Of a stretch of DNA of 39,773 bases, positions 6,778 through 39,773 are shown piece by piece. The notes under the pieces were generated by a model. That model did not search any database and was not told the origin of the DNA. It saw only the letters and a program-made list of their open reading frames with translations. How positions within the stretch are numbered: the first letter of the stretch is position 1; each line of letters opens with the position of its first letter. The translations under genes and the position numbers were made by a program. Source of the DNA: Lachnospiraceae bacterium (GTDB lineage Bacteria > Bacillota > Clostridia > Lachnospirales > Lachnospiraceae); contig JAEEKC010000111.1 of the NCBI GenBank assembly GCA_016282215.1, forward strand, positions 1-39,773. Direction: 5' to 3'.

Positions 6778-6782
6778 AACTT

Positions 6783-12303: not shown

Positions 12304-12312
12304 ATTCCCCAC

Positions 12313-15415: not shown

Positions 15416-15429
15416 CTTCTATACCCTCC

Positions 15430-17319: not shown

Positions 17320-17801
17320 GCTGATGCCTCCTTTCTGTATGATTCAATGATATCTTCTACCTCTTCCACATCCACCTTCGGATATACCTTACCGTTAATG
17401 CTGACAGCAGGCGCGATACCGCAGGCACCGATGCAGCGAAGGGCATCTAAGGTAAACAGACCGTCCTTGGTGGTCTGGCCGGGTGCGATGCCGAGGATTT
17501 CGGAAAAACGGTCGATGACGATCTGGGCGCCCTTGACATAGCAGGCCGTTCCGAGGCAGCAGCCGATGACATATTTACCCTTGGGCTCTAATGAGAAAAA
17601 CGAATAGAAGGTAACCACCCCATAAATCTCAGCAACTGATATCCCCGTTCTTTGCGACACCACTTCCTGCACCTCGAGCGGGATATATCCGTATTCATTC
17701 TGGATATCGCTCAGGATCATCATCAGCGGCGTCTTTTCCTTTTTGTACCTGTCGCAGATGTCTTTGATCTGGCGGACAGCACTTTCACTTAGCCTTGCCA
17801 T
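17316..17801 (-). CDS. hydC: NuoE-like [2Fe-2S] subunit of bifurcating-type hydrogenase
   Basis: CLGTACYVKG ... CIGACGIAPAV is the thioredoxin-like 2Fe-2S signature. The protein is 161 aa. ATG at 17801 has a GGAGGAG RBS. Confidence 0.9.
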   Translation of the reverse strand: MARLSESAVRQIKDICDRYKKEKTPLMMILSDIQNEYGYIPLEVQEVVSQRTGISVAEIYGVVTFYSFFSLEPKGKYVIGCCLGTACYVKGAQIVIDRFSEILGIAPGQTTKDGLFTLDALRCIGACGIAPAVSINGKVYPKVDVEEVEDIIESYRKEASA

Positions 17802-24124: not shown

Positions 24125-26854
24125 TCAGGTATATAAAAACAGAAGGCCGAAGGTTCCCGCGCCGCTGTTTACCGCAATGGTAGGAGATGCCTTCTGGAAA
24201 ATGATCCTGTCAAAATCCATATGCCTTTCGATCTCTGCCTTGATGCTGTCAAGGTCATTCTGGGTCAGTCCCACATAAGTGACGAATAAAAGTCTTTTAT
24301 CAATCCTGTGGGGCATATCCAAAACGCCGGTGATATATCCTGCCCAGGCCCGCTCCCTGCTGCCGAAGAAGACGCGTCCCACCTTCATTTTGCCTTTTTT
24401 CATGACCAGAACCGGATGCAGCATAAACGCATTGGCGATCTTTGCCGTCTGCTCGCTCATCTGGCCTGTGGCAGCCAGGTGATCTAAGTTTGCGACAATA
24501 AAACTGGTATGGACTTTTTTCTTTAAGGTTTCCAGTTCTTTGGAAATCTGCTCAGCACTCTTTCCTTCCTGCGCCATTCTGGCAGCCGCGATCGCCACCA
24601 GCCCCTGGCCGCTGGAAAGCTGCTGCGAGTCCACCACGGTAATATTATCAAAGGACCGGGCGGCTTCTCTTGCCGGAATACAGCCGGAATCCTCAAGCTG
24701 CGCGGAAAGGGAAACATGGATCACATGGTTCGCGCTCTGCAGGCCTTTTGCAAAGAAACTTTCCAGTTCCGAAACAGTCGGCGGCACGGCCCGGATGCCG
24801 GAAGCATTTTTTTCCATATAGGAAAGCACGCCCTCCTGATCCAGTTCCAGCGCATCGCGGAACACGCCGTCTCTGGTTTTTACCATATGCGGGATCACGC
24901 CGATCTGATAGGATTCGAGCATCCACTTGGGAATATCCGCAATGCTTTCCGTTGTGACCAGCACCCTGGCTTTCTTGCCCTGCCTGTCGATCCAGCTTAA
25001 GCTTTCCTCTGTGATCTCCTTCTCTTCTTCATAGACCGTAACCAGGTCTTTGGGCAGGAGACGACGCACCTCGTTCTCTAAGTCCTCGCCGGTTACGGGC
25101 TTGACCAGATAACCGTCAAAGCCTTCTTTGGCATAAATTTCAGCGTTTTCTTTTCCCGCATTGGCCGTCAGCGCAACGACTGCGGTTTCCCGGTTCATGC
25201 CGCCGGTCTGCGAGCGGATCTTGTGGAAGCATTCGATACCGTCCATGCCGGGCATCAGGTGATCCATCAAAATCAGATGATAATATTGATTCAGTGTCTT
25301 TTCGAGAGCCTCCTGACCGGAAGAAGCCGTATCGATCCGGATTTTGGTATCCCGAAGGAGTTTGCCCACCACCAGAAGATTGGCGGAAGTATCATCCACA
25401 GCCAGGATCCTGGCATCCGGCGCTTCAAAGCTGCGGCGGTATCCGTGCTTTTTCTGTGTCAGATGACGTCCCTTGCCGCCCGGCTGCTGCACAGGCTCTT
25501 CATTGATGATCTTCTGGGGAATGTCAATGATAAACGTGGAACCTTCCGTATATACGCTGTTCACGGTGATGGTTCCGCCCATCAGATCCACAAACTGTTT
25601 GACAATGGAAAGACCGAGGCCGGTTCCTTCAATGTACCGGTTCTGATCTTCATCTTCCCGTTTAAAAGCCGTGAACAGATGGGGGATGTTCTCTTTTTTG
25701 ATACCGGTTCCCGTGTCCACAACGGTATAGATGATATGGGCCATGTCCTCGTCCGTCTTTTCCCACTGGAAAGACAGGGTGACTGACCCTTCCGGGGTAT
25801 ATTTGATCCCGTTGCCGACCACATTGACCAGAATCTGCTTGATGCGCACATCATCCCCGTAAAGCTCACTGGGAAAATCCGGTGCGATATTGATCCGGAA
25901 ATCCAGCCCCTTTTTCTTTGCCTGGAACCAGAACATTCCGGCGATATCGGAGAGCATCTCTCCTGTCTTGTATGGCGCCGGACTGATCTCCATCTGGCCG
26001 GATTCGATCTTGGACATATCCAGGATATCATTGATCAGATGCAACAGCATATTGCCGGCTGCCGCGATATTCTCGGAGTTCTCATTGATCTCAGGGGAAA
26101 CGTTTTCCCGCAGCGTCATCTCATTCAGACCGATAATGGTATTGATGGGAGTCCGGATCTCATGGGACATGTTGGAAAAGAACCGGTTCTGGGAGCGGCT
26201 CAGCCTTTCAATCTCCATATGCTGCCTGTTTTCCGCCAGCAGCTCTTTATTCAGACTGAATCTTGTATAGAGAAGCACCAGGCCCGAAACAACCTGCATC
26301 AGGGTAAAGGAAAAGAAATTAAAAAATGCATATTCCGATTCCCTGGTCTGCATGATCTGATCGATCTGGTACAGCCTTATGAACATCATCAAGTCAAAAC
26401 CAATTGCGATCAGAAGATAATTTAAAGGGTGTACATAGACACAGATGGGAACCAGCAGGGTGATCATCAGATAGGGTGTCGTATCGATCAGATCATTGAA
26501 GACTGCGTTGACCTGAACCAGGGAAAAGGACCAGCCGAACATGACGACCACCATCAGGGTATTGAGCAGATTCAAAACATGATATCTGCCTTCAAAATCA
26601 TTCACAACAAATCTGGCTATCGCCAGCCAGAGAATGGAGCTTACCACCAGAACAAGATAGACCATGCGATGATAAGGCAGACTGTTTAAAAACTCCTCAG
26701 GATCGGTATATGTCATGGCCAGCATCACCGCGCCGATCAAAAAGACTAAGATCACCACGATATGTGTCACACGAATGGTATTTTTCACTGCATATCTTGA
26801 AGTTTCCCTGTCTGTCTCAGACGGACGAAACAAAAACCGCAATATATCTTTCAT
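24125..26854 (-). CDS. Hybrid sensor histidine kinase: multi-TM sensor, HisKA, HATPase_c, receiver, C-terminal DegV-like domain
   Basis: H-box SHEIRTPINTIIG; N/G boxes VVGNGIKYT, DTGTGI, GTGLGLSIV; receiver ILAVDD...LILMDHLMPGMDG...ALTANA. The last ~283 aa align along their whole length with DegV/FakB-type proteins (RVLVTTESIADIP..., VVDSQQLSSGQG, FIVANLDHLAATGQM, IAVNSGAGTFGL). Confidence 0.85.
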   Translation of the reverse strand: MKDILRFLFRPSETDRETSRYAVKNTIRVTHIVVILVFLIGAVMLAMTYTDPEEFLNSLPYHRMVYLVLVVSSILWLAIARFVVNDFEGRYHVLNLLNTLMVVVMFGWSFSLVQVNAVFNDLIDTTPYLMITLLVPICVYVHPLNYLLIAIGFDLMMFIRLYQIDQIMQTRESEYAFFNFFSFTLMQVVSGLVLLYTRFSLNKELLAENRQHMEIERLSRSQNRFFSNMSHEIRTPINTIIGLNEMTLRENVSPEINENSENIAAAGNMLLHLINDILDMSKIESGQMEISPAPYKTGEMLSDIAGMFWFQAKKKGLDFRINIAPDFPSELYGDDVRIKQILVNVVGNGIKYTPEGSVTLSFQWEKTDEDMAHIIYTVVDTGTGIKKENIPHLFTAFKREDEDQNRYIEGTGLGLSIVKQFVDLMGGTITVNSVYTEGSTFIIDIPQKIINEEPVQQPGGKGRHLTQKKHGYRRSFEAPDARILAVDDTSANLLVVGKLLRDTKIRIDTASSGQEALEKTLNQYYHLILMDHLMPGMDGIECFHKIRSQTGGMNRETAVVALTANAGKENAEIYAKEGFDGYLVKPVTGEDLENEVRRLLPKDLVTVYEEEKEITEESLSWIDRQGKKARVLVTTESIADIPKWMLESYQIGVIPHMVKTRDGVFRDALELDQEGVLSYMEKNASGIRAVPPTVSELESFFAKGLQSANHVIHVSLSAQLEDSGCIPAREAARSFDNITVVDSQQLSSGQGLVAIAAARMAQEGKSAEQISKELETLKKKVHTSFIVANLDHLAATGQMSEQTAKIANAFMLHPVLVMKKGKMKVGRVFFGSRERAWAGYITGVLDMPHRIDKRLLFVTYVGLTQNDLDSIKAEIERHMDFDRIIFQKASPTIAVNSGAGTFGLLFLYT

Positions 26855-26912
26855 AACTGATCCCCTAAACTGAATACTGATTCATCACCGCATTTTCCCA
26901 AACGCTTATTTG

Positions 26913-29627
26913 TTACTTGTCATCCTCCGGCATAAATTCAAAAATGCCGTCGTTCTCTGCGTGTGCTGATCCGGTGACACCGGCCGCGTCCTGCGGCTGC
27001 GAACCTGCACCGGCGTCCTGTTGACTTGCTGTGGCACCGCCGGCGCCATCATCGGCATCACCTGCTGTATCATTTTTTGCATCCCCTGTAATCCCAAGAT
27101 AAGCCGCAATCCCCTCCGTAGTATGGCGGTAACGTTCCATGACCGTCGCATGATGGTTGATCACGGAAGAGACATCCTCATTTTTTGCCGCTTCTTCCAA
27201 TAATCTTGCCTGCTCGGAAAGATCCGTGGCGCCGATCATTTTGGCAGTGCTCTTTAAAGCGTGGATGGTGATGCTGTAGTTCTTCATATCCTGCTTATCG
27301 ATACAAAGCGAAAGACTTGCCCTCTTCTTTTCGCTGTCAGAATAGAACTCCTTCAAAAGTGTCTCATAAAACTGTCTGTCATCCTGACTGTAATGCAGAC
27401 CCTTTTCCACATCGATCCCGAAGAATCGGAGCAGCTGATCCTTTGCCGTTATTTCGCCGCCGGACATCTGATCACCGCTAAAGCTTACCGGTTTCTCTTC
27501 CGTTGCCCAGTCAGTGGCCTTTTCCCTTTCGATCCCCAACACCTTCGGCACACGGATCTTCTCTTCCCTTGTCTTGGGTCTTTCATATGAGATCATGGAT
27601 TTCGGCAACGCTTTTTTCAGGACGCCTTCGAGCTCTTCCATTTCCACCGGCTTGCTGACAAAACCATCAAACCCCTCAGATATGAACATTTCTTTGGCCG
27701 TACTCACCGCATTGGCCGTCAGCGCCACAACGGGCAGATCTCTTCTGCCGGTTTCCGTGCGCAGCCGCTTCATAGCCTCAACGCCGTCCATTTCCGGCAT
27801 CATATGATCCATGAAAACAATATCAAAAACATGCTCCGTTGCAAGCTTTATCGCCTCACTGCCGGACTCGGCGCAGGTCACGGTCATGCCATATCTGGAA
27901 AAGATTCCCCTTGCCACCATCAGATTCATCGGCTCGTCATCTACCACGAGTGCACGGACGCCCTCGCAGCGAAGCGCGCCATCCTTGGTTTCTTTTGTAT
28001 GGATATCGGAATTTAAGATATTGATCACAGGGAAGCAGTAAAAGGGTTTTCTCATGACACGGACATGGGATCCTTTTGGCGGCACGAAATCATCATTTGC
28101 CACAACCACCACCAGGAGTTTTTCAGCAAGCCGCTCGAGATACTCTCTGTTTGCCTCATATTCCACATCTCCCACAAACAGGTGCGTCATCTTCACGCTA
28201 TCCACCAGCTTTTGAAGTTTGGCAATGGTTTCCACCCGGTGCATCTGCACCTTCAGGCCGGTCACGATATCCCGGATCATGGCATTATAAAACTCACGTA
28301 CACTGGGATTGGAGAATTTTTCGAAACGAAGATAGGTGCCGAGGATCAGTTTTTCACTGTTTCTGGCCTTCATGCAGACAGACGGATCCGCCACCTTCTG
28401 GGGAATGCTGATCCGGACCGTGGTTCCCTGTCCCGGATCGGATTCGAGCGTCACAAATCCCTTCATGGCCGTTACAAAACCATGCACGATGGACATGCCC
28501 AGGCCGAGTCCGTTGGAAGAACGGTTCCTGCCGGAATTGGCCTGATAAAAACCTTCATAGACGCGCTCGATCTCCCTAGGCGTCATTCCGATCCCGGTAT
28601 CCGTCACATCGATACACAGATTGATACCATAGTCTTCTTCAATGGGATAAAGACGAACATAGACACCGCCCTCTTTTGTATATTTCAGGCCGTTTACGAT
28701 CAGATGCCATAAGATCTTTTTTAATTTTCCGCCGTCTCCGTGCAGAACGGAAGGCAGCACGGGATCCACATCGATGACCAGCTCCAGATGATCCGGTTTG
28801 ACAGACCGAAGCTGTGACACCAGGTCGCTTAAGACAGAAGAAAGCATGTAGTCTTCTTCATTGACCACCAGATGCTCCATATTGATCTCGGAATAATCAA
28901 GGATATCACTGATCTGCTCTGCCACGCGTTTGCCTGCCGCTTCCATGGATAACAGATCCGTGCGGATGTCCTCGTCCTTTTCTTTTTCTATACAGACACG
29001 GGAAAGACCCATCACGGCATTCACGGGCGTACGGATCTCATGGGACATGTTGACAAGAAAATCATTCATGGTCTCCGTCGCCTGCGTCAGCACGCTGATC
29101 CTCTCATCCGTCCGCTGCAGCACCTGATTCCAGGTCTGCATGATGATCTTTGCCACATAGCCGATGATATACATGACCACGATATGCATCATTGTGCGGG
29201 ATACAAACAGGGAATCGACATCGCCCCCGGATTTTACGTAGGCAGCGATATCGTATGCGAAAGTAAGAAAGTAGGTGACCATGGCGAGATTGATCAGGGC
29301 CGGAATGCCCGTCAGGATAAAGATCACCAGAATGCCGCACATGACAACGGCCAGGTCATAGGTACTGGTGGTGTGAATGCCATAGAAAAAGGCAATGAGC
29401 ATCATGAGCAGGGAATACACCCACAGCCTTGCCATCTCAGGAACTTTCTGGTGGATATGAAGGATCCAACTCAAAACCAGCCCGCAGGCTATGGGGATCA
29501 GCGCCCAGGTCTCCCATTCCAGCAGCACGGTGATTGTCATCAAAGCGACAGAAAACAGCGTATAGACGATCAAGATCATCAAATGCGCTGTCTGAAACAG
29601 TTCATTTCTTCCTAAATCTTCCCTCAT
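26913..29627 (-). CDS. Hybrid sensor histidine kinase: multi-TM sensor, HisKA, HATPase_c, pseudo-receiver-like linker, receiver, Hpt
   Basis: H-box SHEIRTPVNAVMG; LIVNGLKYT, DTGIGM, GLGLGMSIV; receiver ALVVDDEP...VFMDHMMPEMDG...ALTANA. The C-terminal IHALKSTAKMIGATDL matches the Hpt H.LK motif. Confidence 0.85.
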   Translation of the reverse strand: MREDLGRNELFQTAHLMILIVYTLFSVALMTITVLLEWETWALIPIACGLVLSWILHIHQKVPEMARLWVYSLLMMLIAFFYGIHTTSTYDLAVVMCGILVIFILTGIPALINLAMVTYFLTFAYDIAAYVKSGGDVDSLFVSRTMMHIVVMYIIGYVAKIIMQTWNQVLQRTDERISVLTQATETMNDFLVNMSHEIRTPVNAVMGLSRVCIEKEKDEDIRTDLLSMEAAGKRVAEQISDILDYSEINMEHLVVNEEDYMLSSVLSDLVSQLRSVKPDHLELVIDVDPVLPSVLHGDGGKLKKILWHLIVNGLKYTKEGGVYVRLYPIEEDYGINLCIDVTDTGIGMTPREIERVYEGFYQANSGRNRSSNGLGLGMSIVHGFVTAMKGFVTLESDPGQGTTVRISIPQKVADPSVCMKARNSEKLILGTYLRFEKFSNPSVREFYNAMIRDIVTGLKVQMHRVETIAKLQKLVDSVKMTHLFVGDVEYEANREYLERLAEKLLVVVVANDDFVPPKGSHVRVMRKPFYCFPVINILNSDIHTKETKDGALRCEGVRALVVDDEPMNLMVARGIFSRYGMTVTCAESGSEAIKLATEHVFDIVFMDHMMPEMDGVEAMKRLRTETGRRDLPVVALTANAVSTAKEMFISEGFDGFVSKPVEMEELEGVLKKALPKSMISYERPKTREEKIRVPKVLGIEREKATDWATEEKPVSFSGDQMSGGEITAKDQLLRFFGIDVEKGLHYSQDDRQFYETLLKEFYSDSEKKRASLSLCIDKQDMKNYSITIHALKSTAKMIGATDLSEQARLLEEAAKNEDVSSVINHHATVMERYRHTTEGIAAYLGITGDAKNDTAGDADDGAGGATASQQDAGAGSQPQDAAGVTGSAHAENDGIFEFMPEDDK

Positions 29628-29716
29628 GAAAGCGCCTCGTTTTTTTCGTTCTTATCCCCCGACCGGAACCGGGAACTTTTGCGCCGCCCTGCATAATCCC
29701 CAATGCAGTCGTTCTC

Positions 29717-30742
29717 TTACGGATACAAATACGGCCGCAGCAGAGAATTCTCTCCATCCGGATATACTGCATCCTGTGCGGTATTCCGTACCTCTTTCAT
29801 CAAAGCCACATTGTGCATGGAGATCTCGAAGATCAGCCCGAAAATGTGTGCGCTAAAGATCATATCATCCAGATCGAAACTGCCTTTTTCATAAAACCGC
29901 GTCAGGCAGATCAGCTCTAAGAGATGAACGCTTCTGAAAACGGAGATCAGCGGTCCGTCGATATGTCCGTCCTGAATGGTATCGAGAAGTTGCCTGTGTG
30001 CAAAATAAGCCGCTGTCTTGCGCAGCCATTTTTTTGCCTCGGGGACTTTTTCATAAAACTCTGCGCGTATTTTTCCTGCCTGCGGCAAAATGGAACGCAG
30101 GGTGACAAACAGCTGCTGCGAAACGTCATGTCCTTCAAAATACAAAGCATCATCGAGGAGTTTTTCCATCTCCTTCGGCGATTCATAGCATCCGAAAAGA
30201 CTGTCATCAAAACTGCCGGCAACCAGCGCTTTCATCAGTCCGTCCCGGAATGCTAACAACCGCTCGGTCCTGACTCTTAATTCCTCGGAAACTTCAATAT
30301 CCGCCTCTTCCTCGGTGCGGATAAATACCGGAGCATCTCCCGGAGATGTATAGAGAAGCCTTGCCACCTCACTACAGGCGATCAGGATCCTGTCCTGCCT
30401 GTAATGTCCGGCCATAACCTCCTGCTCCCGCGGATAAATATCACAGATCTTGATCTGGGCTTTTTCACCGTCATGAAGCCTGACAGAACAAAGCGTATCC
30501 TCTGTCAGAAACGGACAGCGACCGTTGTCTTTCAGGCGGATAAACCAGTCACCGTTTTCTTCCTGAAAAATATTCTCCCGCAGATAATCACCAAACTCAC
30601 CCTCGTAGTTTAAATAAAACTCCGCAGTCTCCGGATCCATGGGCAGTACCCAGGCATAACAGCACACGTCGATACAGGTCGTGTTACCCGTACAGGTAAA
30701 ACTGTCATAATAATCCGGTCGCTCCCGTATGATCTTTGTCAT
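29717..30742 (-). CDS. FliB-like Cys-cluster protein (flagellin lysine-N-methylase family / YkgJ-type)
   Basis: The N-terminus PDYYDSFTCTGNTTCIDVCCYAWVLPMDPETAEFY fits the F.C.G..C.D.CC..W.I..D signature of FliB-type proteins, plus DNGRCPFL...LC. The start overlaps the BMP gene's stop (ATGA). Confidence 0.55.
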   Translation of the reverse strand: MTKIIRERPDYYDSFTCTGNTTCIDVCCYAWVLPMDPETAEFYLNYEGEFGDYLRENIFQEENGDWFIRLKDNGRCPFLTEDTLCSVRLHDGEKAQIKICDIYPREQEVMAGHYRQDRILIACSEVARLLYTSPGDAPVFIRTEEEADIEVSEELRVRTERLLAFRDGLMKALVAGSFDDSLFGCYESPKEMEKLLDDALYFEGHDVSQQLFVTLRSILPQAGKIRAEFYEKVPEAKKWLRKTAAYFAHRQLLDTIQDGHIDGPLISVFRSVHLLELICLTRFYEKGSFDLDDMIFSAHIFGLIFEISMHNVALMKEVRNTAQDAVYPDGENSLLRPYLYP

Positions 30743-31866
30743 TTTCCGCCTCCGATATTCTCTGTAAAACTCTCATATTCCTCTGCCGTCGCCGGCGCTG
30801 TGATCTGTCCGGATTTGATGGAATCTTCTACCAAAAGCACGGCATCATAGATCTCATCCCGATAGTTTTTATGCTCGGCCGGTATACCGACCGCCCCTTC
30901 TGTCAGACCAAGGCTTAAGACCGTGCCGCCCGTCTTTTCGCCCATGGCATAGGATTCCGACACCCTTTTTGCCGCCACATCCACATTTTTCATCGAACTG
31001 GTGAGCACATGCTCCGGTGCCAGATAAGACTGATCCCTGTCCGCGCCGATCACATAATGATCCGTATCCCTAGCCGCCTCGATCACGCCGGTTCCGCTGC
31101 CACCGGCCGCATGAAGGATGATATCACAGCCCTGCGCGTAAAGTTTCCTTGCGATCTCGTATCCTAAGTCCGGATCATCAAAACTGCCGGTATACTCTGC
31201 AAAAAACTCCACTTCTTTTCCGTAAATCCCGGCCGCATAAGCAGCGCCGCCCATAAAGCCGTAACGAAAACTGTCGACGGAATCGATCCGGCTGCCGCCC
31301 ACAAAACCAAGCTTTCCTGTTTTGGTCATGGCACCCGCGATATAGCCTGCCAGAAAAGAGGATTCCTGCGCCCTGAATGCAACGCCCGTAACATTGGCCG
31401 GCAGATCCGATGGCGAGCTGTCCACCAGCGCATACTGCGTACCGGGATTTTCCTTTGCACATGCAAAGAGGGCCTCCTGACAATTATAGCCGACGCCCCA
31501 GATCAGATCGCACCCTTCATCGGTCAGCTGCTGAAAATTTGCCGGAAGGTCATCCTTTTTTTCCGTTTCTGTATATCTTATCTTTGCACCGCTTCTGACG
31601 GAAAAATCCTGCAGTCCTTCCCAAACACCCTGATTAAAAGACGCGTCATTGATCCTGCCTTCATCGGTCACCATAGCGACTATCATCCCGGCTCCCGGAG
31701 TGCCTTCTAAAGGCTCTTCCTCTTCCTCGGCGCCCGCTTCTTCGTTTTCCCAGATCTGCATGACATGGATCTCATCCGTTTTACCGCAGCCGGAAAGAAG
31801 TCCTGTTATCAACAGCACGGACAAAAGCAGGACGATCATTCTTTTTATCCGATCAGCCCTCGTCAT
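30739..31866 (-). CDS. BMP-family (PnrA/Med-like) substrate-binding lipoprotein, with no ABC partner genes nearby
   Basis: The lipobox is LLSG-C. VAMVTDEGRINDASFNQGVWEGL and GFVGG...F..GF..G are typical of basic-membrane-protein SBPs. The start overlaps the PP2C gene by 14 nt. Confidence 0.85.
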   Translation of the reverse strand: MTRADRIKRMIVLLLSVLLITGLLSGCGKTDEIHVMQIWENEEAGAEEEEEPLEGTPGAGMIVAMVTDEGRINDASFNQGVWEGLQDFSVRSGAKIRYTETEKKDDLPANFQQLTDEGCDLIWGVGYNCQEALFACAKENPGTQYALVDSSPSDLPANVTGVAFRAQESSFLAGYIAGAMTKTGKLGFVGGSRIDSVDSFRYGFMGGAAYAAGIYGKEVEFFAEYTGSFDDPDLGYEIARKLYAQGCDIILHAAGGSGTGVIEAARDTDHYVIGADRDQSYLAPEHVLTSSMKNVDVAAKRVSESYAMGEKTGGTVLSLGLTEGAVGIPAEHKNYRDEIYDAVLLVEDSIKSGQITAPATAEEYESFTENIGGGK

Positions 31867-33574
31867 TTTTCGTCCCCTTATAACGGATTGCCAGCATAGT
31901 CAGGTCATCAAACTGCGGTGCGCTGCCCACGAATCCGTCCACGCCTTCCTTCATCTGCCGGATCAGACCCTTTGCGTCGGCCTGCGGATCTTTGTTGATC
32001 GCCTGTATCATCCGCTCCGTACCGAAGAGTTCCTGGTCTGCGCTGGTGGCTTCCGGCGCACCATCGGTGTAAACAAATACCGCACCACCGGGCTCTATCG
32101 TAAATTCATAATCATGGTAAGACATGCCCTCCATGCCGCCTACGATAAAGTCATGCTTGTCTTTAAAGATCTCGAATTTCTCACCGGGTTTCTGAATAAA
32201 CGGATACTCATGACCGGCATTGGCCGCAATGACATGGCCGGTGGAAATCTCCAAAATGCCCAGCCATACGGTCACAAACATATCCTCTTCGTTGTTCTTG
32301 CAGATCTGATCATTTACCTGCTCAAGCGCTTTCCCCGGGCTGACCCCCATCATCACGTTATTGGCGATCAGGATCTTGCTCATCATCATAAACAGTGCTG
32401 CCGGTACGCCTTTGCCGGAAACATCCGCGATCACCAGGGCCAAATGATCCTCGTCGATCAAAAAGAAATCATAAAAGTCTCCGCCCACTTCCTTTGCCGG
32501 AGTCATGGATGCGAAAATATCAAACTCATCCCGCTCCGGGAAGGCCGGAAATACGCTCGGCAGCATGGAGGCCTGAATCTTCGTTGCCACGTTCAGCTCT
32601 GCGCCGATCCTCTCTTTTTCTGCGGTCACGGCTGTCAGATCCTTGATATACTGCTCGATCCTGATGGTCATGTCACTGAAGGAATAGGCCAGAGACGTGA
32701 TCTCGTCATCGGTCTTGAATTTGCTGACATCCGTTTTGATCCTGCCGCTCTGATAGGAATCCACCGTATCCGTCAGATCCCCAAGGGGCCGGATCACGAT
32801 GCGGCGGATATACAGGATCATCAGTACAACAACAAAAAGCATGCTCATTAGCTGTACCCCAACGATGGCCATAATGCCGCCCCGGATCCGTCTTCCGAGA
32901 TCCTCTACGATGAAATCCGCCTCCACCATGGCTACCATCTTTCCATTCGAATCAAAGAGAGGCGCCCAGGCGCAGACCGGTTTTCCGTATCCCGCATCCT
33001 GTCCGTATACAATGCCGGTGGAAGCACGCTCCGCCTTGATATCCGGTACCAGGATATCATAATCCCTGTCCAGATATTCATAAACATCTCCGGGCTTTGC
33101 TATGACGGAGGCATCATCTGCGTCAGACTGTCCTTCCACCAGATATGTAAAACTGGTATCGCCGGGCTTGTAAATATACAGATACTGGATTCCGGAAAAA
33201 TCCGTCTTGATCTGATTGAGCATGTTTTTCACTTTCACATACTCCGGATCATTTTCATCCAGTGTTTCGGAAAAATCCCTGACCCAGTCGCCGTCCAGTT
33301 CATGTGCCAGCATCCGTGTCAGTTCCTGCGCCTTTTCACTGTACTGGGTATAATAGATATTCTGGATGGAATTGACACTGATACAGGTAATAAAAACCGC
33401 CATCACCGCCATCAGCAAAATAAGTGCCGTGGTAATCCTTCTGTTCAGGCCTTTTGTGACACGTGTCCCACTCTGTCCCCTGTCACTGCTTTCCCTCTCG
33501 GCAGATCCGTTGTTTTTGAATTCCCGATTTTCCGACTCATTTTTTGCCAATTCTTTCTTCTCCCGCTCTTTCAT
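31853..33574 (-). CDS. Membrane sensor PP2C/SpoIIE-family Ser/Thr phosphatase (TM, Cache-like extracytoplasmic domain, TM, HAMP, PPM)
   Basis: ATKIQASMLP...FASMTPAKEVGGDFYDFF...LVIADVSGKGVPAALFM...YTDG..E is the SpoIIE/RsbU-type signature. Two TM helices flank a ~170-aa domain. I place the start at the ATG at 33574, which overlaps the GNAT stop (ATGA), rather than at 33625. Confidence 0.85.
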   Translation of the reverse strand: MKEREKKELAKNESENREFKNNGSAERESSDRGQSGTRVTKGLNRRITTALILLMAVMAVFITCISVNSIQNIYYTQYSEKAQELTRMLAHELDGDWVRDFSETLDENDPEYVKVKNMLNQIKTDFSGIQYLYIYKPGDTSFTYLVEGQSDADDASVIAKPGDVYEYLDRDYDILVPDIKAERASTGIVYGQDAGYGKPVCAWAPLFDSNGKMVAMVEADFIVEDLGRRIRGGIMAIVGVQLMSMLFVVVLMILYIRRIVIRPLGDLTDTVDSYQSGRIKTDVSKFKTDDEITSLAYSFSDMTIRIEQYIKDLTAVTAEKERIGAELNVATKIQASMLPSVFPAFPERDEFDIFASMTPAKEVGGDFYDFFLIDEDHLALVIADVSGKGVPAALFMMMSKILIANNVMMGVSPGKALEQVNDQICKNNEEDMFVTVWLGILEISTGHVIAANAGHEYPFIQKPGEKFEIFKDKHDFIVGGMEGMSYHDYEFTIEPGGAVFVYTDGAPEATSADQELFGTERMIQAINKDPQADAKGLIRQMKEGVDGFVGSAPQFDDLTMLAIRYKGTKNDEG

Positions 33575-34143
33575 AACACACCTTCGTTTTTTGTGACTCT
33601 GATGATCTCCATCACGGCGCCGCATTTGCAGTTTTGCCCGCAGATGGGACAGGAAATACCATAGCGGTGGGCGTCTTTGTAAAACATGGGGATCTCTCTT
33701 TTCCAGATCACTTTTCCCATCTTCTCATAGATCCGCCTTGCCGGACAGCTTCCGTCCGGATAGACCCAGATCTCCACCGCAAAGGCTTCGATCCCACGCT
33801 TTTTTAACATTTCCAGGTTCCAGGCTGCCATCTGCCCTGCGATCCCCCGGCCCCGGTGATCCTTTGTCACCATCATGGCATCCACCGTTGCCACAGACAG
33901 TCCGGTAGTCTCTTTTTTCAGTTCTTCTTCCAAATCCGGATGAGGACAGGTCAGAGCAATGCCATCCTGAAAACTGAAATATCCTGCCGTTTCGCCCTCT
34001 GATACTGCACGACATCCATAGTAAATCCCGGCGTCGAAGGTTGCTTTGATGGCGTTTCTGACTTTTTCTCCACTGTTTAAATAGGTTTCATAATACCGTG
34101 TGATCTCATCAAGATCCTCTCCGGTAATACTTTTCAATTCCAT
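33571..34143 (-). CDS. GNAT-family N-acetyltransferase with a C-terminal CxxC..CxC tail
   Basis: MVTKDHRGRGIAGQMAAWNLEMLKKRG matches acetyl-CoA motif A. The C-terminus is CPICGQNCKCG. I prefer the ATG at 34143 (GAGGA upstream); the GTG at 34173 is an alternative start. Confidence 0.75.
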   Translation of the reverse strand: MELKSITGEDLDEITRYYETYLNSGEKVRNAIKATFDAGIYYGCRAVSEGETAGYFSFQDGIALTCPHPDLEEELKKETTGLSVATVDAMMVTKDHRGRGIAGQMAAWNLEMLKKRGIEAFAVEIWVYPDGSCPARRIYEKMGKVIWKREIPMFYKDAHRYGISCPICGQNCKCGAVMEIIRVTKNEGVL

Positions 34144-34173
34144 TTTGTTTCGATCCTCGATACAATGAGTCAC

Positions 34174-37068
34174 TTATTGGTATCTCTTCCGGTCCGTCTT
34201 GATTCCCGCGATATAAAGCCCCGTAAAGAACAGCAGCAAAATGCAGAATATGGCGATGCCGTTTCGATAACCCAGTAGCAGAAGCGCACCGTAAACCATA
34301 GGGCCGATGGTCTGGCCTAAGTTCTCAAACACAGAATAAATGCCCATGGATTTCCCGTTGCCATATTGCGCACTGTCCGGCAGTTCTTCGAAATAGGTAT
34401 ACTGACAGGTATAGGCAAAGGAGGTGATGGCCGACAGCATGAACGCGCCCAGCACCGCCGTTATCAGCGAAGGGATCAGGACAAAGAGCAGCATATTCAG
34501 TCCCATGGCCACGCTGCCGATGATAATACTGCCGAAGGTGCCGAAACGGCGGATCACATAATTTGATATATAAGGGCCGATATAGAGCACCAGCAATCCG
34601 CAAAGCATGTAAAGCTGTCCGATCCGCTCCTCGGAAAAACCGTTTTCCGCTGCAAACATGGGGAAAAAATATTCACGATAGGATATGGATGCCATAAAGG
34701 GTACCAGGATCAGTACCAAAAAGCCCAGCACCCGTCTGTTGAAGAAAAAGACAGGGAAACTGATCCGCGGTTTATCTTCCTCCCCGGATGCCTCGTCCGG
34801 TCTGACTTCTTTGCTCTTTTTACATAAAAGGAAAACAGGCAGCATAAAGCACGCCGCTACGGAATAGGCAAGCCGGCTTCCGCCGATGGGGAATAACAGG
34901 GAGGCCAGCCCGGCTCCTACGGTCAGGCCGGACAGAATTCCCGCCATCACATCCGCGAAGGCCTGTGCCACAGCCTCGGTTCCTTCTGCCATAGCCGCCA
35001 TTGCATTACAGGTCACATTGATCAGCCCAAGTCCGATACCCATAAACACATTGCCGATCAACAGCCCGAAGTAATTACCGAAAACGGCACAGATCACAAA
35101 ACCGGAAACCTCAATGGCCACACCGGTCAGAAGCGTCATTTTACTGCCCTTTTTCTCAGCCAAATGCCCGCCAACAGCCGCAAAAACAGCCATCATCAAA
35201 AGATTGGCTGACAGTGGAAGACCTGCACCCACACTGTCCGGCACGAAAAGCTGTCCGTGATAATGCTTAGCCGCAAGCACTGTGATAAAACTGTCCTGCA
35301 GCGTTGCCGCCGCATAGGAAAACAGAATGATGGTCCGAAGCGGAATCAGTTGTGTAATATCTGCCTTTGCCAGGTTCACAAGCTCCCTTTTCCTTTCATA
35401 AAAACCCAGCAAAAAGAGTCCTTCGACGATCAGCATCACCATAACTGCCGAGGAACAAAAGACTGACAAAATGATATTAAGGGTCTCGGAGCGTCTTTCT
35501 GCCGTGCGGTAACTTAAGTCCGTACCGATCTCGAGGATCGAAACGCACTCTCCCGCCTCATTTTCCACCGGCGTCAGAACGTAGAGCCACTGCCCGTCCG
35601 CGTCCGTGCTCTTCAGCGCAAAAGATCTTCTCGTATTGTAGACATCCATATAGTAGGTGTCATCCATCCGGCCGAAGGGTTCGCAGCACATGACTGTATC
35701 ATAATAGTTCATCAGATAACAGAGTTTCCCCTCCTCAACCTTGTAAAAGACATAATAATAGTCTTTTCCTTCCTTCATGGTTTCCGCCATCAGAAGGTCG
35801 AGTTTTTCCCGCAGCTGCAGATAGGAGGAGCTGGCATAATCGGATTCCGAAGTGATCCGCGATAAAAGATCCACATCCAGATTGTTGACGATCAGATCCG
35901 TGACCAGTTTCATGTCGCTGACATCCCAGACATCTTCTTTCCGGTGCTGTTCACTGATCAGGGACCAGGCGATAAAACTCGATACCGAAAGTACTGCCAG
36001 CACCACTGCTGCCATACGCAGGGCTGATTCGTGATAGGTCAGTTTCACAATGGCCGCAGGCAAAAACCGAAGCAGCCAGGTCAGGATAACCGCCGAAAGC
36101 ACGATCGCCATCCAAAGAAGAACCGTGATATAAAAGCCCTTGTATCCGATCTTCGCGACATAGGCGCTCTTTGGACTGCCTGACTGCGCATGTGTGATCT
36201 CATAAAAACTGATCAGGTCACAGCAAAGCACATTGTCACCGTCCGCAGATACGCTCAGGGCATTCAGTTTCAGATCGTCCTCGCGGTAAACGGTCGTCAG
36301 GCTCGTTACATCATCTTCTTTTAACCGGCACAGCCTGCCGCCGTAAAAATCGGAAAAGTATACCCATCCGTTTTCTGCACAGATTCCCTGCGGCATCAGA
36401 TGCTCCGCATCGCTCCCAAGCGTCTCCCAGGTATTGCCGCTGCCGGCTGCAAGCCGCACGCCGCCTCTTTTTGTGGCAATGGCGATATATCCGGTGGACA
36501 GATCCGCCGAAGCATCATTGAGCACATCGCCGCAATAAATGCTGCGGATCACACTGACATCCTCTCCTGCCACCAGCCGCAGTACCAGCCCATAATCATC
36601 CTGCTGCAGGACATACAATCCTTCATCCGCCGCCTTGATCTCAAAGATCCTGTCATCGCCTGTATAAATCTGCCTGTATTTACCGCCGCTGTATTCAATG
36701 ACGCGGTATTGCTCTAGTGTGCCGTCATCAGTCTCGATATAGGCAATATCCGAAATATATAAAACGCTTTTGCCGTTCGAAAAGCCTTCCGTCACGCTCT
36801 GGGCATAGTAAAACCTGTCGTTCCTGCCGCCGATGATCCTTTTTTCGAGCACACCATCCCGGCCGATCACATTGATCACGGTCTTTCCTTCATCGATCAC
36901 ATACTTCCTGCCGTCCTGTCCGTAGATCGCCTCAGCGGCTGTGGTAAACTCATAACTACGGCCCAAAAACAGCCCCGACCGGTTCACGTATACGACAGAC
37001 AAAAGTGCGATCAGCAAGGTCAGCAACGCGATATCGATATAAAGTTGTTTTTTACTCTTCGTTTCCAA
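34174..37068 (-). CDS. MFS transporter (C-terminal ~430 aa, 12 TM) fused to two N-terminal extracytoplasmic domains
   Basis: Layout: TM1 (res ~11-28), a ~290-aa domain, two TMs, a ~160-aa Cache-like domain (YYYVFYKVEEGKLCYL...GQWLYVLTPVENEAGECVSILEIG), then a hydrophobic MFS-like core. The only available start is the TTG at 37068, with a weak RBS. Confidence 0.75.
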   Translation of the reverse strand: METKSKKQLYIDIALLTLLIALLSVVYVNRSGLFLGRSYEFTTAAEAIYGQDGRKYVIDEGKTVINVIGRDGVLEKRIIGGRNDRFYYAQSVTEGFSNGKSVLYISDIAYIETDDGTLEQYRVIEYSGGKYRQIYTGDDRIFEIKAADEGLYVLQQDDYGLVLRLVAGEDVSVIRSIYCGDVLNDASADLSTGYIAIATKRGGVRLAAGSGNTWETLGSDAEHLMPQGICAENGWVYFSDFYGGRLCRLKEDDVTSLTTVYREDDLKLNALSVSADGDNVLCCDLISFYEITHAQSGSPKSAYVAKIGYKGFYITVLLWMAIVLSAVILTWLLRFLPAAIVKLTYHESALRMAAVVLAVLSVSSFIAWSLISEQHRKEDVWDVSDMKLVTDLIVNNLDVDLLSRITSESDYASSSYLQLREKLDLLMAETMKEGKDYYYVFYKVEEGKLCYLMNYYDTVMCCEPFGRMDDTYYMDVYNTRRSFALKSTDADGQWLYVLTPVENEAGECVSILEIGTDLSYRTAERRSETLNIILSVFCSSAVMVMLIVEGLFLLGFYERKRELVNLAKADITQLIPLRTIILFSYAAATLQDSFITVLAAKHYHGQLFVPDSVGAGLPLSANLLMMAVFAAVGGHLAEKKGSKMTLLTGVAIEVSGFVICAVFGNYFGLLIGNVFMGIGLGLINVTCNAMAAMAEGTEAVAQAFADVMAGILSGLTVGAGLASLLFPIGGSRLAYSVAACFMLPVFLLCKKSKEVRPDEASGEEDKPRISFPVFFFNRRVLGFLVLILVPFMASISYREYFFPMFAAENGFSEERIGQLYMLCGLLVLYIGPYISNYVIRRFGTFGSIIIGSVAMGLNMLLFVLIPSLITAVLGAFMLSAITSFAYTCQYTYFEELPDSAQYGNGKSMGIYSVFENLGQTIGPMVYGALLLLGYRNGIAIFCILLLFFTGLYIAGIKTDRKRYQ

Positions 37069-37198
37069 AACCGGTATACCCGCTTACTTTTTATCACATT
37101 CTGATCGCGTCGCAGTTCCCATCCCACATTTATCTAATCATTTGTAAACGGTACATAATCGGTACCACCCTAAATCCAAGCCGCCCGGCGGCGGCAGA

Positions 37199-38791
37199 TT
37201 ATTTTTTCTTGTGACAGCACTCCGGTAATGAAGCCGACCAGGGAAGGAGTTCTTCGCAGAAACGTCGATCTGTATCTTCCATGTGGTTCGGTATTACCGT
37301 AAGAACGTGCTTAATGTATTCGTACACATTCAGGTTGTTTGCTTTTGCTGTTTCAACTAGACTGTATATGATGGAACTGGCCTTGGCTCCGGATATCGTA
37401 TCGATCATGACAAAGTTTTTCTTTCCGATACAGAATCCACGAATAGCCCGCTCGGCACAGTTATTATCAAGCGGTACATCGGGATCATCCAGGAACACCC
37501 TAAGGTATTTTTCCTGGCTTAGTGAATAGGCAATTCCTTTCGCGGTCTTGTTCTTTGCAGATGTACGGTGTTCGTTTTTATGACACCACGCAAAGTAGGC
37601 CTCAACAAGAGGTTTGACCGTAAGCTGTCGCTTAAGCAGACGTTCTTCCGGTGGAAGGCCCTTCAGGGCGTTGTCCGCATTATATATTGCCTGTATCATG
37701 GCCAGGGCTTTGTATGCGAGGCTTCCTTTTTGAGCTCCCTTCGCCATTGCTTTCAGGGCTTCGTCATATCGTCGCCTTGCGTGCGCATAGCAGCCGGCTA
37801 TCTTTAGATCCTCGCGTTCTTTTTCAAGCTTGTGATAGACTTGATAGCCATCTGTTACACATACCCCGGAGAAATTCCTGAGGAACTCTCTCGGGTGAGA
37901 CGCGTTCCGCGTCTTTTGGTACTCATACAGGACAATCGGGTGTTCGTGATTCATTCCGGTCCGGTACACCCACATATAACTTTTGGATCCGGCCGGCCGG
38001 TCATCCTTGTTTACCAGCACCGGTGTTTCGTCTGCCTGCAGTACATGGTAATCATACATCTTTTCATGCAGGTAGTCATACAGGATTGACAAATACCTTT
38101 CGGCGCTTGCTATGGTCCACCTGGCCATTTCCTGCCTTGTGATATCAAGGCCATCGGACTCGAACTGTTTCTCGATCCGATAGAACGGAACGGCATTTAC
38201 ATACTTGGCATTTATGATGCCTGCTTCCAGCGAAGGAGAGACAAGACTGTTTCTCATAAGGTATGCCGGAAATTTCGCTTTTACCATGCGTTCACTCTTT
38301 TTGCCGGAGTAGACGCCGACATGTATCTCTTCAAGGCCCACCTTGGCGGGTACGAAATAATAACGTTTTATCACTTCGTCAGGAAGTGTTTTATATCCTT
38401 CATCACCAAACTCGTCATTCAGTTCTTCCTCTGACATGTAGTACTTAGTGGTTTCAACTACTTCGAGTTTGGACAGATCGGCTTCTTTCTTTCCCTGGGG
38501 CCGTTTGGCTTTCAAAGGTGCGGGGGCTTCTTTGGCTTCCTCGTCCTTTACAGCCTCAGCCTCGTTGAAGAATGCGATGTTTTCATCATTCTCAAAGAAT
38601 GAGATTTGGCCATCAATCTCGAAGGATTCGGAAGAGCGCCCAAACCGGTGGCGTTTTGCATCAACGACTTCTTCCATGAACTTTTGGAGTTTGTCATCAA
38701 GCTTTTTGTATTCTTCCTGCTGGGAAAGAATGATGTTGACCAGATCAGCGTGATCGAGTTTATTCAATTGCTCAGCGGATAAATGTTTCAT
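37199..38791 (-). CDS. tnpC: IS66-family transposase
   Basis: LQADETPVLV...SYMWVYRTG...VLYEYQKTR...FSGVCVTDGYQVY...AGCYAHARRRY is the characteristic IS66 DDE core. The protein is 530 aa. Confidence 0.93.
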   Translation of the reverse strand: MKHLSAEQLNKLDHADLVNIILSQQEEYKKLDDKLQKFMEEVVDAKRHRFGRSSESFEIDGQISFFENDENIAFFNEAEAVKDEEAKEAPAPLKAKRPQGKKEADLSKLEVVETTKYYMSEEELNDEFGDEGYKTLPDEVIKRYYFVPAKVGLEEIHVGVYSGKKSERMVKAKFPAYLMRNSLVSPSLEAGIINAKYVNAVPFYRIEKQFESDGLDITRQEMARWTIASAERYLSILYDYLHEKMYDYHVLQADETPVLVNKDDRPAGSKSYMWVYRTGMNHEHPIVLYEYQKTRNASHPREFLRNFSGVCVTDGYQVYHKLEKEREDLKIAGCYAHARRRYDEALKAMAKGAQKGSLAYKALAMIQAIYNADNALKGLPPEERLLKRQLTVKPLVEAYFAWCHKNEHRTSAKNKTAKGIAYSLSQEKYLRVFLDDPDVPLDNNCAERAIRGFCIGKKNFVMIDTISGAKASSIIYSLVETAKANNLNVYEYIKHVLTVIPNHMEDTDRRFCEELLPWSASLPECCHKKK

Positions 38792-39077
38792 ACAATAGCC
38801 CTTTTCCTTATAGGTCTATTATACCGCAAACCCGCTGTTTTGGCTAATTGACGGCTCTTTGGGATTCGTCAATTTGCCTATAAATGTAACGCTGCCACTG
38901 CGATCATACAAGCCTGTATTTCTAAGGCTTTTCAACAGAAACCGAAGCCGTTATTGTACAATTACGCCGCTCACAGCCACCGCCATTACGAGATCCTCAC
39001 GAATTCGATGGCGATTATGCACCTTGAAAACCCGGTAAAACGAAGCTGAAAATTTCTACGTTTTGCACAAAAGATTT

Positions 39078-39440
39078 TTAAGCAATCTCCGGCGGTGCCT
39101 TGATTTCAGCTATCGGATGTTTGGCCACAACGTCGAAGCCCTCCATAAGGAGACGGTATTGATCATGGGTTATCTGCATTGCTTCATCTGCAGACCTCGG
39201 CCAGCTGAACGCTCCGATTTCAAGGCGTTTATACAGGAGAAGGAATCCATCTCCTTCCCAGAGAAGGCCTTTGATACGATCCGTCCTTCTGCCGCAGAAA
39301 AGAAAAAGGACATTCTTTTCAAAGGGATCCAGCTTATATTTGAACTTTACGATCGATGCAAGACCATCTATTCCTTGGCGAAGGTCGGTGTAACCTACTG
39401 CAAGTACGATTTTGGAAAAACCCGAAGCATCATTTAACAT
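39078..39440 (-). CDS. tnpB: IS66 Orf2 accessory protein
   Basis: TDLRQGIDGLASIV...VLFLFCGRRTDRIKGLLWEGDGFLLLYKRLE.G.F.WP is the hallmark IS66 TnpB sequence. Confidence 0.93.
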   Translation of the reverse strand: MLNDASGFSKIVLAVGYTDLRQGIDGLASIVKFKYKLDPFEKNVLFLFCGRRTDRIKGLLWEGDGFLLLYKRLEIGAFSWPRSADEAMQITHDQYRLLMEGFDVVAKHPIAEIKAPPEIA

Positions 39441-39773
39441 TTGCAGCCACCTCCATGAGCGAAAGAAGGAGTTGCCTGGAGGTAGAAGAATTCACATCAA
39501 TTCTTATGCTTCCTATGGAAACGACAGCTTCAGTGTGAAAACTATCAGTATCAGCTTTCCGCGAGACCAATGGTGCTTGCTGCGGCTCCCTGATCTCAAC
39601 GAATTCGATGTTTTGCGACTCAAGAACGGACGTCCTAACTTTCCGCAGCCAATAATAATACGCATTAATGGAAAGACCATGCGCCTGGCAGTATTCCATG
39701 ATCGTCATGCCGCTGGAACTTCTGTCCTTAAAAATCTCCGTCCATTCGTTGAGCCGGATCTGATTTACTGCAA
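39430..39773 (-). CDS. tnpA: IS66 Orf1 (HTH accessory protein), 5' end outside the window
   Basis: The reading frame stays open upstream of the annotated Met to the window edge (AVNQIRLNEWTEIFKDRSSSGMTIMEYCQAHGLSINAYYYWLRKV), matching the usual IS66 TnpA HTH region. It overlaps tnpB by 11 nt. Confidence 0.8.
   Translation of the reverse strand, partial: AVNQIRLNEWTEIFKDRSSSGMTIMEYCQAHGLSINAYYYWLRKVRTSVLESQNIEFVEIREPQQAPLVSRKADTDSFHTEAVVSIGSIRIDVNSSTSRQLLLSLMEVAANVK

Follow-up and report, generated by a model that had tools for sequence, protein, structure and literature searches.

A five-gene set of rumen Lachnospiraceae built on a Clostridia MFS–GNAT–PP2C cassette, with partner-switching genes beside its relatives

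The contig JAEEKC010000111.1 of a Lachnospiraceae bacterium (assembly GCA_016282215.1), analyzed over its whole length of 39,773 nt and referred to here as the window, carries five adjacent minus-strand genes for a major facilitator superfamily (MFS) transporter with two extracytoplasmic domains, a GNAT acetyltransferase, a HAMP-PP2C phosphatase, a BMP/PnrA-family lipoprotein and a FliB-like cysteine-cluster protein. The five genes almost certainly constitute a conserved unit: the set is shared by all comparable loci, is retained in spite of permuted gene order and has overlapping start and stop codons, all of which supports the linkage. The run from the MFS gene through the FliB-like gene is predicted to form one operon that is the rumen-Lachnospiraceae variant of a wider Clostridia cassette, in which the transporter and the phosphatase would act as paired sensors with an output by partner switching. 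The probability of this explanation as a whole is put at about 0.55.

A five-gene set within an older Clostridia cassette

All open reading frames (ORFs) of at least 150 amino acids (aa) in the window were scanned with Pfam. The module comprises the following features.

37069-37198, minus strand: intergenic leader between the stop of an IS66 transposase gene and the MFS start, the probable promoter region of the module
34174-37068, minus strand: gene 1, MFS fusion protein of 964 aa (Pfam MFS_1 at residues 582-898)
33571-34143, minus strand: gene 2, GNAT protein of 190 aa (Pfam Acetyltransf_1; listed as ORF 33571-34173)
31853-33574, minus strand: gene 3, HAMP-PP2C phosphatase of 573 aa (Pfam HAMP and SpoIIE; listed as ORF 31853-33625, 590 aa)
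30739-31866, minus strand: gene 4, BMP/PnrA-family lipoprotein of 375 aa (Pfam Bmp and a lipobox)
29717-30742, minus strand: gene 5, FliB-like protein of 341 aa (NCBIfam NF038110)

The initial annotation had described a seven-gene sensory system in which these genes are followed by two hybrid histidine kinases, HK1 and HK2. An ORF check located all seven ORFs on the minus strand at the positions given here and below, and Pfam together with NCBIfam upheld the domain calls with small corrections. The start of gene 3 is the ATG at 33574, and that of gene 2 is probably the ATG at 34143. When the junctions were read off the sequence, the MFS and GNAT genes were separated by 30 nt, and the remaining junctions were as first described: an ATGA overlap between the GNAT and PP2C genes, a 14-nt overlap between the PP2C and BMP genes, a second ATGA overlap between the BMP and FliB-like genes, and gaps of 89 and 58 nt before HK1 and HK2, respectively. 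Neither an output response regulator nor a sigma factor nor an ABC permease or ATPase gene was detected by Pfam within the seven-gene cluster, again in agreement with the annotation. The lack of ABC genes confirms the orphan status of the BMP lipoprotein, and no ABC-transporter family was seen to recur in the flanks of related loci.

Related loci used in the comparisons are numbered L001 to L109. Orthologues of the FliB-like protein were collected from the neighborhoods of three members and from a one-genome-per-species scan that gave 16 loci, and the 19 loci in total were analyzed by tblastn and ORF clustering. The family is tight (53-98% identity) and confined to Lachnospiraceae, the host group of all 16 loci from the species scan. 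The MFS fusion, GNAT, PP2C, BMP and FliB-like genes were present in every sufficiently long locus (17 to 19 of the 19 for each), and the next commonest flank family occurred in 4/19. The module also was found in metagenome contigs beyond the 16 species-level genomes. Most loci preserve the gene order of the window, and L002 and L010 have the permuted order MFS–BMP–FliB–GNAT–PP2C. The flanks are unrelated between loci and include genes for nonribosomal peptide synthetase (NRPS)-like, ThyA, MutS, MCP, SIMPL and xanthine permease proteins, among others. Thus, the proposed co-occurrence of seven genes held for five of them and failed for the two kinases, and the description of a conserved membrane sensory gene set with several extracytoplasmic sensor domains stands for those five.

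No system in Pfam, NCBIfam or PADLOC corresponds to the gene set, and literature searched on partner switching, PP2C, MFS, GNAT, contractile injection systems and Clostridia yielded no description of it, which bears out the view that the system is not a described one. A defence-island reading was dropped: in PADLOC, none of the five module proteins matched a defence system, and the two kinases had only marginal hits (~18 bits, E = 3e-4). One of the carriers found in the species scan, Lachnospiraceae bacterium AD3010, has a genome record without a metagenome-assembled genome (MAG) label; it is apparently a cultured isolate, which may make genetics feasible.

Three of the five genes belong to an older assemblage. 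A search with the PP2C protein retrieved more than 120 clusters from Lachnospiraceae, Oscillospiraceae and Blautia that are 43-58% identical over ~92% of the length, sensor domain included. Five neighborhoods without a BMP gene were inspected: an MFS gene of 970-1020 aa lies just 5′ of the PP2C gene in 5/5, a GNAT gene intervenes in 4/5, and the BMP and FliB-like genes occur in 0/5. A metagenome scan with the MFS alignment (A5) added 80 loci. These were annotated with purpose-built hidden Markov model profiles; calling by longest ORF gave, in some loci, spurious antisense ORFs ('f11') over the GNAT and PP2C genes, which were ignored. Of the 87 loci with 1 kb or more downstream, 82 have a PP2C gene after the MFS gene, and the other five are the most remote MFS relatives; GNAT is the next gene after MFS in 84/94 loci. 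The distance matrices of the MFS, GNAT and PP2C proteins are pairwise correlated (r = 0.84-0.89, 63 loci). The BMP gene was found only in the clade whose MFS protein is at least 43% identical to that of the window, and L036 has the BMP gene and lacks the FliB-like gene. The BMP and FliB-like genes are late, clade-specific additions to the MFS–GNAT–PP2C core, and the distribution of the genes indicates a layered history with the trio first, BMP next and the FliB-like gene last.

Other neighbors of MFS relatives were recorded. The most distant relatives with the same domain order (L021, L024, L104 and L106-L109) lack both GNAT and a full PP2C gene and have as neighbors one or two LPG_synthase_C genes, which specify an aminoacyl-phosphatidylglycerol-synthase-like GNAT fold. 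At L022:3369-12142, a shorter MFS relative without the N-terminal propeller described below stands beside an ABC_sub_bind binding protein and a dCache histidine kinase, again a layout of binding protein, MFS and sensor; a DAP-epimerase-like gene and a 537-aa protein of no family also are present. A single-module NRPS-like gene (adenylation and condensation) adjoins the MFS gene in two separate lineages, one represented by L019:1-3522, with a carrier domain too, and by L017, on the opposite strand, and the other by L028:1867-4866, on the same strand.

Protein architecture and partner-switching associations

In the MFS protein, MFS_1 (PF07690, 98.8 bits) covers residues 582-898 of a domain with 12 transmembrane (TM) helices, in agreement with hydropathy. 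The N-terminal 580 residues had no Pfam hit, and a PDB sequence search with the N-terminus found nothing. The two extracytoplasmic domains that had been proposed for this region are supported by the topology and by an AlphaFold model (pLDDT 81). Hydropathy and the model give the order TM1, an all-beta domain (residues ~38-309), TM2-TM3, a long helix followed by a helix-flanked beta-sheet (~372-529), TM4 and the MFS domain. Foldseek placed the all-beta domain in the six-bladed NHL propeller class, with the PknD sensor (1rwl, TMt 0.71) as a match. With E ≤ 1e-30 as threshold, a profile of residues 1-575 retrieved 196 clusters, and relaxing it to E ≤ 1e-10 raised the number to 461; nearly all are of 920-1080 aa. 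MFS_1 was matched by 37 of 38 sampled members of the family, and NHL, SGL or sCache_3_2 by single members (1/38 for sCache_3_2). No substrate-specific MFS subfamily was matched, the best NCBIfam hit being 33 bits.

The PP2C protein consists of a TM helix, an extracytoplasmic sensor (~66-235 counted from the ATG at 33574; 83-252 in the 590-aa ORF), a second TM helix, a HAMP domain and a SpoIIE/PP2C domain. SpoIIE (PF07228) scored 152 bits, and HAMP scored 24 bits, slightly below the 25-bit cut-off. The closest solved relatives, SiaA (6k4e), RssB and Rv1364c, are partner-switching phosphatases. The metal-binding aspartates of the motifs GGDFYD, ADVSGKG, YTDG and FDDLT are present in the window protein and conserved in 52 to 63 of 63 orthologues. 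In seven to ten of the 63, two of these residues are substituted (D to G, N or S), which marks the proteins as possible pseudo-phosphatases. The sensor is homologous to the second ectodomain of the MFS protein (372-529), as judged from an hhalign comparison with P = 5e-4 over 107 columns. Similarly, hits of the PP2C profile (~9-223) fell within the MFS gene in 34 loci, and hits of the MFS profile (343-548) fell within the PP2C gene in 10, one of them the window. Fold and homology suggest that the shared domain is of the Cache type.

The GNAT protein has the acetyl-CoA motif R-x-x-G-x-A/G and a C-terminal CPxCGxxCxC (Cys4) tail, both kept in 63/63 orthologues. The BMP protein matched PF02608 with 268 bits and has BmpA, BmpD and PnrA as PDB relatives. 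A lipobox is present in 19/19 orthologues, in which D68, D149, D276, D278 and K293 are invariant; F77 is kept in 18/19, and position 229 is F in 17 and Y in 2. D68 and F229 align with Asp27 and Phe186 of PnrA, which are named as purine contacts (PMC7093131). These residues suggest that the lipoprotein probably binds a nucleoside-like ligand outside the cell.

The FliB-like protein scored 110.9 bits with NF038110 (cut-off 85), a match that spans model positions 1-160 of 373 only. Eight cysteines are invariant in 18 sequences, arranged as C17-x5-C23-x3-C27-C28, C76, C85, C100 and C123, and together with the match above the cut-off they uphold the initial designation of a FliB-like Cys-cluster protein. 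An AlphaFold model (pLDDT 82) has a Cys-rich N-terminal domain and a C-terminal helical bundle. Searches with Pfam, an exact look-up of the window protein and a PDB sequence search with the profile gave no hit, and Foldseek against the PDB returned no significant match (best E = 0.55). Flagellar genes were neither found among the scanned window ORFs nor recurrent in the 19 module loci.

The phosphatase is tied to partner switching in many relatives. Among the best 120 PP2C homologues, which were examined for fused domains, 33 have a C-terminal HATPase_c_2 domain, the fold of the kinases RsbW and SpoIIAB. Trio loci without a BMP gene have STAS and/or RsbW-like genes in 30/45 cases. Counted over orthologous cassette loci, an RsbW-type kinase or a STAS protein is adjacent to or fused with PP2C in 31/67, the five-gene locus L001 included. 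The layouts vary.

L025: STAS–MFS–GNAT–PP2C::RsbW
L027: MFS–GNAT–PP2C::RsbW
L028: MFS–PP2C–STAS::APH::RsbW
L029: STAS–ABC ATPase–RsbW–MFS–GNAT–PP2C

In L001, free RsbW-like and STAS genes lie 3 kb upstream of the module, and their products share 57% and 64% identity with the L027 and L025 proteins, respectively; the STAS protein is above the TIGR00377 cut-off. Neither sigma factors nor diguanylate cyclases were found to recur in the cassette flanks. Because orthologous phosphatases are connected with an RsbW-type kinase and a STAS protein in so many relatives, a partner-switching output encoded elsewhere in the genome is most likely for the module, and an output of this kind is favored with fair confidence. 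The claim that the cluster lacks a sigma/anti-sigma-type output thus holds for the window and does not extend to its relatives.

Proposed mechanism and alternative explanations

Gene content, conservation, domain architecture, sensor homology and the STAS/RsbW association in relatives are the observations from which the biochemical steps, ligand, substrates and final output that follow are inferred. On the cell surface, the MFS protein and the phosphatase would each present a TM–PDC(Cache-like)–TM module, the two modules being homologous, and the MFS protein would add its PknD-like NHL propeller. The two proteins would form a transporter-coupled sensor pair, with the transporter as co-sensor, that sets the activity of the cytoplasmic RsbU/SiaA-type PP2C domain via HAMP. 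The phosphatase would then dephosphorylate a STAS antagonist that is phosphorylated by an RsbW-type serine kinase, both partners being encoded elsewhere in the genome. The GNAT-fold enzyme would be functionally coupled to the MFS protein and act either on its cargo or on a protein of the pathway. The BMP lipoprotein may present a nucleoside-like ligand to the sensor domains, as Med would for KinD, and the FliB-like protein may be a FliB-type [4Fe-4S]/S-adenosylmethionine methyltransferase with a divergent, presumably substrate-binding C-terminal half and a substrate other than flagellin. The co-receptor and enzyme roles of these last two proteins are each tentative. A concerted code of phosphorylation, acetylation and methylation, as envisaged initially, is possible.

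Several observations weigh against this explanation. A STAS or RsbW-type gene was detected neither in the cluster (Pfam) nor in the 39.8-kb window as a whole (Pfam, tblastn), and STAS and/or RsbW-like genes accompany 1/22 BMP-bearing loci, namely L001; the clade may therefore have changed its output. GNAT is absent from some trio loci (L028, L037, L059 and L082). The hhalign probability of the match between the sensor domains is just 31%, and no Pfam Cache family matches either sensor domain of the window; of the designation Cache-HAMP-PP2C the HAMP and PP2C parts were confirmed by Pfam and the Cache part drew no hit. Finally, a terminator and promoter scan of the junction between the FliB-like gene and HK1 gave no separating pattern, so that read-through into the kinases is possible.

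More broadly, and tentatively, the cassette may be an unrecognized, widespread input device of gut and rumen Clostridia, a heteromeric transceptor of transporter and phosphatase that drives partner switching, that gates a contractile injection system in some lineages and that in the rumen variant recruited a nucleoside-binding lipoprotein and a FliB-type methyltransferase with a new substrate. Clostridia commonly have partner-switching phosphatases, for most of which the input is unknown; the PP2C family here has fixed, co-inherited partners, which provides a testable hypothesis for how an extracellular cue reaches the phosphatase. The N-terminal architecture of the MFS protein recurs in hundreds of protein clusters without a family name. 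If the proposed role is correct, the recruitment of BMP would represent the first case of an MFS or PP2C sensor that depends on a binding protein. Two features of the rumen variant would be possible biochemical firsts: its orphan binding protein of the nucleoside type and, outside a flagellar context, its FliB-like iron-sulfur enzyme.

An alternative that is rather unlikely places the cassette in transport or envelope chemistry: GNAT would modify a small molecule or lipid translocated by the MFS protein, BMP would deliver a nucleoside-like substrate, the FliB-like enzyme would modify the cargo, and PP2C would tune the process. It accords with the GNAT-fold enzyme as the deepest conserved partner of the MFS protein, replaced by LPG_synthase_C in the most distant branch, with a BMP protein that has nucleoside-site residues yet no ABC partner, with the binding protein of the related ABC_sub_bind family in L022, and with the NRPS-like genes of L017/L019 and L028. 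However, the linkage of PP2C is approximately as tight as that of GNAT (82/87 versus 84/94), the sensor modules of the phosphatase and the MFS protein are homologous, STAS/RsbW components are frequent, the MFS domain matches no substrate-specific subfamily, and we know of no MFS transporter that depends on a binding protein.

A second alternative arises from 11 distant loci: L067 (1-18428), L029, L051, L055, L060, L062, L072, L076, L078, L084 and L088. In these, the cassette with STAS, FtsE-like ATPase and RsbW genes lies between baseplate genes of the gp25/J/I type, which match TIGR02243, TIGR02242 and CIS12, and genes for an Ntox11 toxin and an AAA+ ATPase. The order is gp25-like, J-like (×2), I-like, STAS, FtsE-like ATPase, RsbW, MFS, GNAT, PP2C, Ntox11, GNAT, AAA+ ATPase. 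With flanks of 8 kb the injection-system loci are visible in part only, and from their genes the 11 look like contractile-injection loci with a built-in partner-switching module; finding the cassette in such loci, in human-gut bacteria, suggests that these machines have a further level of regulation. The AAA+ ATPase family is near the MFS gene in 24 loci. It is conceivable from this context that the cassette serves an extracellular contractile injection system, or the AAA+ ATPase of such a system, as a regulatory or triggering accessory, and that the window holds a decoupled remnant. For the window this is improbable. No baseplate, tail or AAA+ gene was found in the DNA analyzed around any of the 22 BMP-bearing loci, among them the window, whose scanned ORFs also include no sheath or tube gene, and all branches that show the association have an MFS protein with 31-36% identity to the window protein.

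A third alternative retains the original proposal of one sensory system of seven genes built on the Hpt domain of HK1, with phosphotransfer to the REC-DegV kinase and purely post-translational outputs. The kinase genes, both neighbors outside the module, are as follows.

26913-29627, minus strand: HK1, hybrid kinase (Pfam HisKA-HATPase-REC-Hpt) with 5 TM helices
24125-26854, minus strand: HK2, hybrid kinase (Pfam HisKA-HATPase-REC-DegV) with 6-7 TM helices

In its favor, all seven genes are read in one direction, the gaps before HK1 and HK2 are short (89 and 58 nt), a terminator is not evident after the FliB-like gene, the order is the same in L004 and in same-species MAGs, and L014 and L020 carry another hybrid kinase after the FliB-like gene. 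Nevertheless, orthologues of HK1 and HK2 are present beside the module only in one relative, L004, and the same-species MAGs; none was found in the other module loci, most of which extend at least 7 kb beyond the module, or in the deeper MFS–GNAT–PP2C trio loci. The kinase of L014 and L020 has a PAS-HK-REC-REC architecture, a different sensor region and 24-25% identity, and L013, a close relative of both, has no kinase at this position. On these grounds a loose association of the kinases with the module was ruled out as well. Moreover, the DNA of the window and L004 is 63-84% identical across the module and up to 98-100% identical downstream, with mosaic values of 84-99% across HK2, and this unequal divergence indicates different histories for the module block and the kinase block. 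The conserved unit is therefore five genes rather than seven, and the Hpt domain, on a kinase whose linkage is not conserved, is not a hub of the module. The two hybrid kinases are in all likelihood not part of it and merely adjacent in the species of the window; a single seven-gene system is accordingly very unlikely.

Other features of this flank were noted. HK2 is an HK–REC–DegV fusion in which a fatty-acid-binding-type domain ends a hybrid kinase, next to the HK-REC-Hpt gene, and the pair may form a relay of its own. A Lys/Glu-rich protein of 946 aa (21096-23936, minus strand) corresponds to L004:16745-19585 with 99-100% DNA identity, and the adjacent five-gene module is only about 75% identical between the same two genomes. 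The protein had no Pfam, NCBIfam, PHROG or PADLOC match, and its orthologues, like those of an M15 peptidase, were found only in L004 and same-species MAGs. The identity of this block points to mosaic recombination or recent transfer.

Chance juxtaposition or an assembly artefact, for which the adjoining IS66 element and the mosaic identity to L004 might be quoted, has next to no probability and is refuted for the five genes by their recurrence in 16 species-level genomes and additional metagenome contigs, by the trio in 82 loci and by the overlapping start and stop codons.

The insertion sequence (IS) upstream of the module has the following transposase gene.

37199-38791, minus strand: IS66-family transposase of 530 aa (Pfam DDE_Tnp_IS66, 274 bits)

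The IS66-family element also comprises two small ORFs upstream of the transposase gene (120 and 92 aa, at 39078-39708), which places its genes within 37199-39708 (minus strand); an inverted-repeat search for its ends found none. The distance to the MFS gene had been given as ~76 bp, and the transposase stop (37199) in fact lies 130 nt from the MFS start. L004 has no IS at the matching position, and ~120 nt of the spacer still align with intergenic DNA 5′ of its orthologous MFS gene. A G+C-rich hairpin at 37195-37180 lies just past the transposase gene, and a promoter and terminator scan found fewer promoter-like sites than in shuffled sequence. Elsewhere in the window, all on the minus strand, are a three-gene [FeFe] hydrogenase set at 13637-17801 (large subunit, NuoF-like and thioredoxin-like 2Fe-2S proteins, the pattern of electron-bifurcating HydABC), a 7TM-GGDEF-EAL protein at 10039-12312, and two very large putative surface proteins at 1702-9915, of which one (1691 aa) contains LRR_5/DUF285 repeats and the other (985 aa) matched no family.

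Comparison with known systems

The FliB-like protein resembles FliB in part. Salmonella FliB contains an essential [4Fe-4S] cluster bound by CX4CX3CC and has eight conserved cysteines (PMC8598068). An N-terminal Cys cluster and eight cysteines also are present in the module protein, although its spacing, CX5CX3CC, is one residue longer, its C-terminal helical half is unrelated to FliB, and the similarity does not run over the full length. As neither full-length similarity nor a flagellar context was found, the protein should not be called a flagellin methylase. The six-bladed NHL propeller of the MFS protein lies outside the membrane as does that of PknD, the Ser/Thr kinase of Mycobacterium tuberculosis, but the latter is attached to a Hanks kinase rather than to an MFS transporter, and sequence identity is about 16%.

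Enzymes and transporters are paired in Blt–BltD, which combines spermidine efflux and acetylation, and in LplT–Aas, and the synthase domain of MprF belongs to the LPG_synthase_C family. As in the cassette, a GNAT-fold transferase gene adjoins a transporter gene in these cases. The cassette proteins have no sequence-level membership in any of them, and those systems lack large ectodomains and a linked PP2C.

Membrane sensors with partners of the periplasmic-binding-protein type include LuxQ with LuxP and TorS with TorT. In Bacillus subtilis the lipoprotein Med is reportedly required for the Cache kinase KinD, as attributed to Banse et al. in 2011. Each is an instance of a binding-protein-type partner without ABC genes beside a membrane sensor, which is the arrangement of the module BMP. 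Med itself is represented by the Bmp-family structure 2hqb, a PDB relative of the module protein. The work of Banse et al. (2011) on Med and KinD is cited in PMC11210211. Two differences from Med–KinD are evident: the candidate partner of the module BMP is PP2C and/or the MFS protein instead of a histidine kinase, and the module protein retains the nucleoside-site residues of the PnrA/BmpD type.

Trigger transporters that serve as co-sensors, such as UhpC with UhpB, DctA with DcuS and LysP with CadC, are encoded with a membrane signaling enzyme, as is the cassette transporter, which probably acts together with its own signaling enzyme, PP2C. In contrast to these pairs, the output enzyme of the cassette is a PP2C phosphatase instead of a histidine kinase or a ToxR-like regulator, and the MFS protein bears two ectodomains of its own, of which one is a homologue of the PP2C sensor.

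The closest likeness is with the partner-switching systems RsbU–RsbV–RsbW, SpoIIE–SpoIIAA–SpoIIAB and, in Pseudomonas aeruginosa, SiaA–SiaB–SiaC. The cassette PP2C likewise is a SpoIIE/PPM phosphatase with metal-binding aspartates; it has a HAMP-linked membrane input like that of SiaA, which is its best PDB match; and relatives of the cassette, too, encode a single-domain STAS protein and an RsbW-type kinase next to PP2C or fused with it. Unlike in those systems, the constant companions of the phosphatase are an NHL–PDC–MFS protein of ~970 aa and a Cys4-tailed GNAT, and in the window clade the operon contains no STAS or kinase gene. Overall, the sequence comparisons are consistent with a gene set for partner-switching sensing that has acquired a new conserved input module, the mechanism of which would follow the predicted scheme of transporter and phosphatase as paired sensors.

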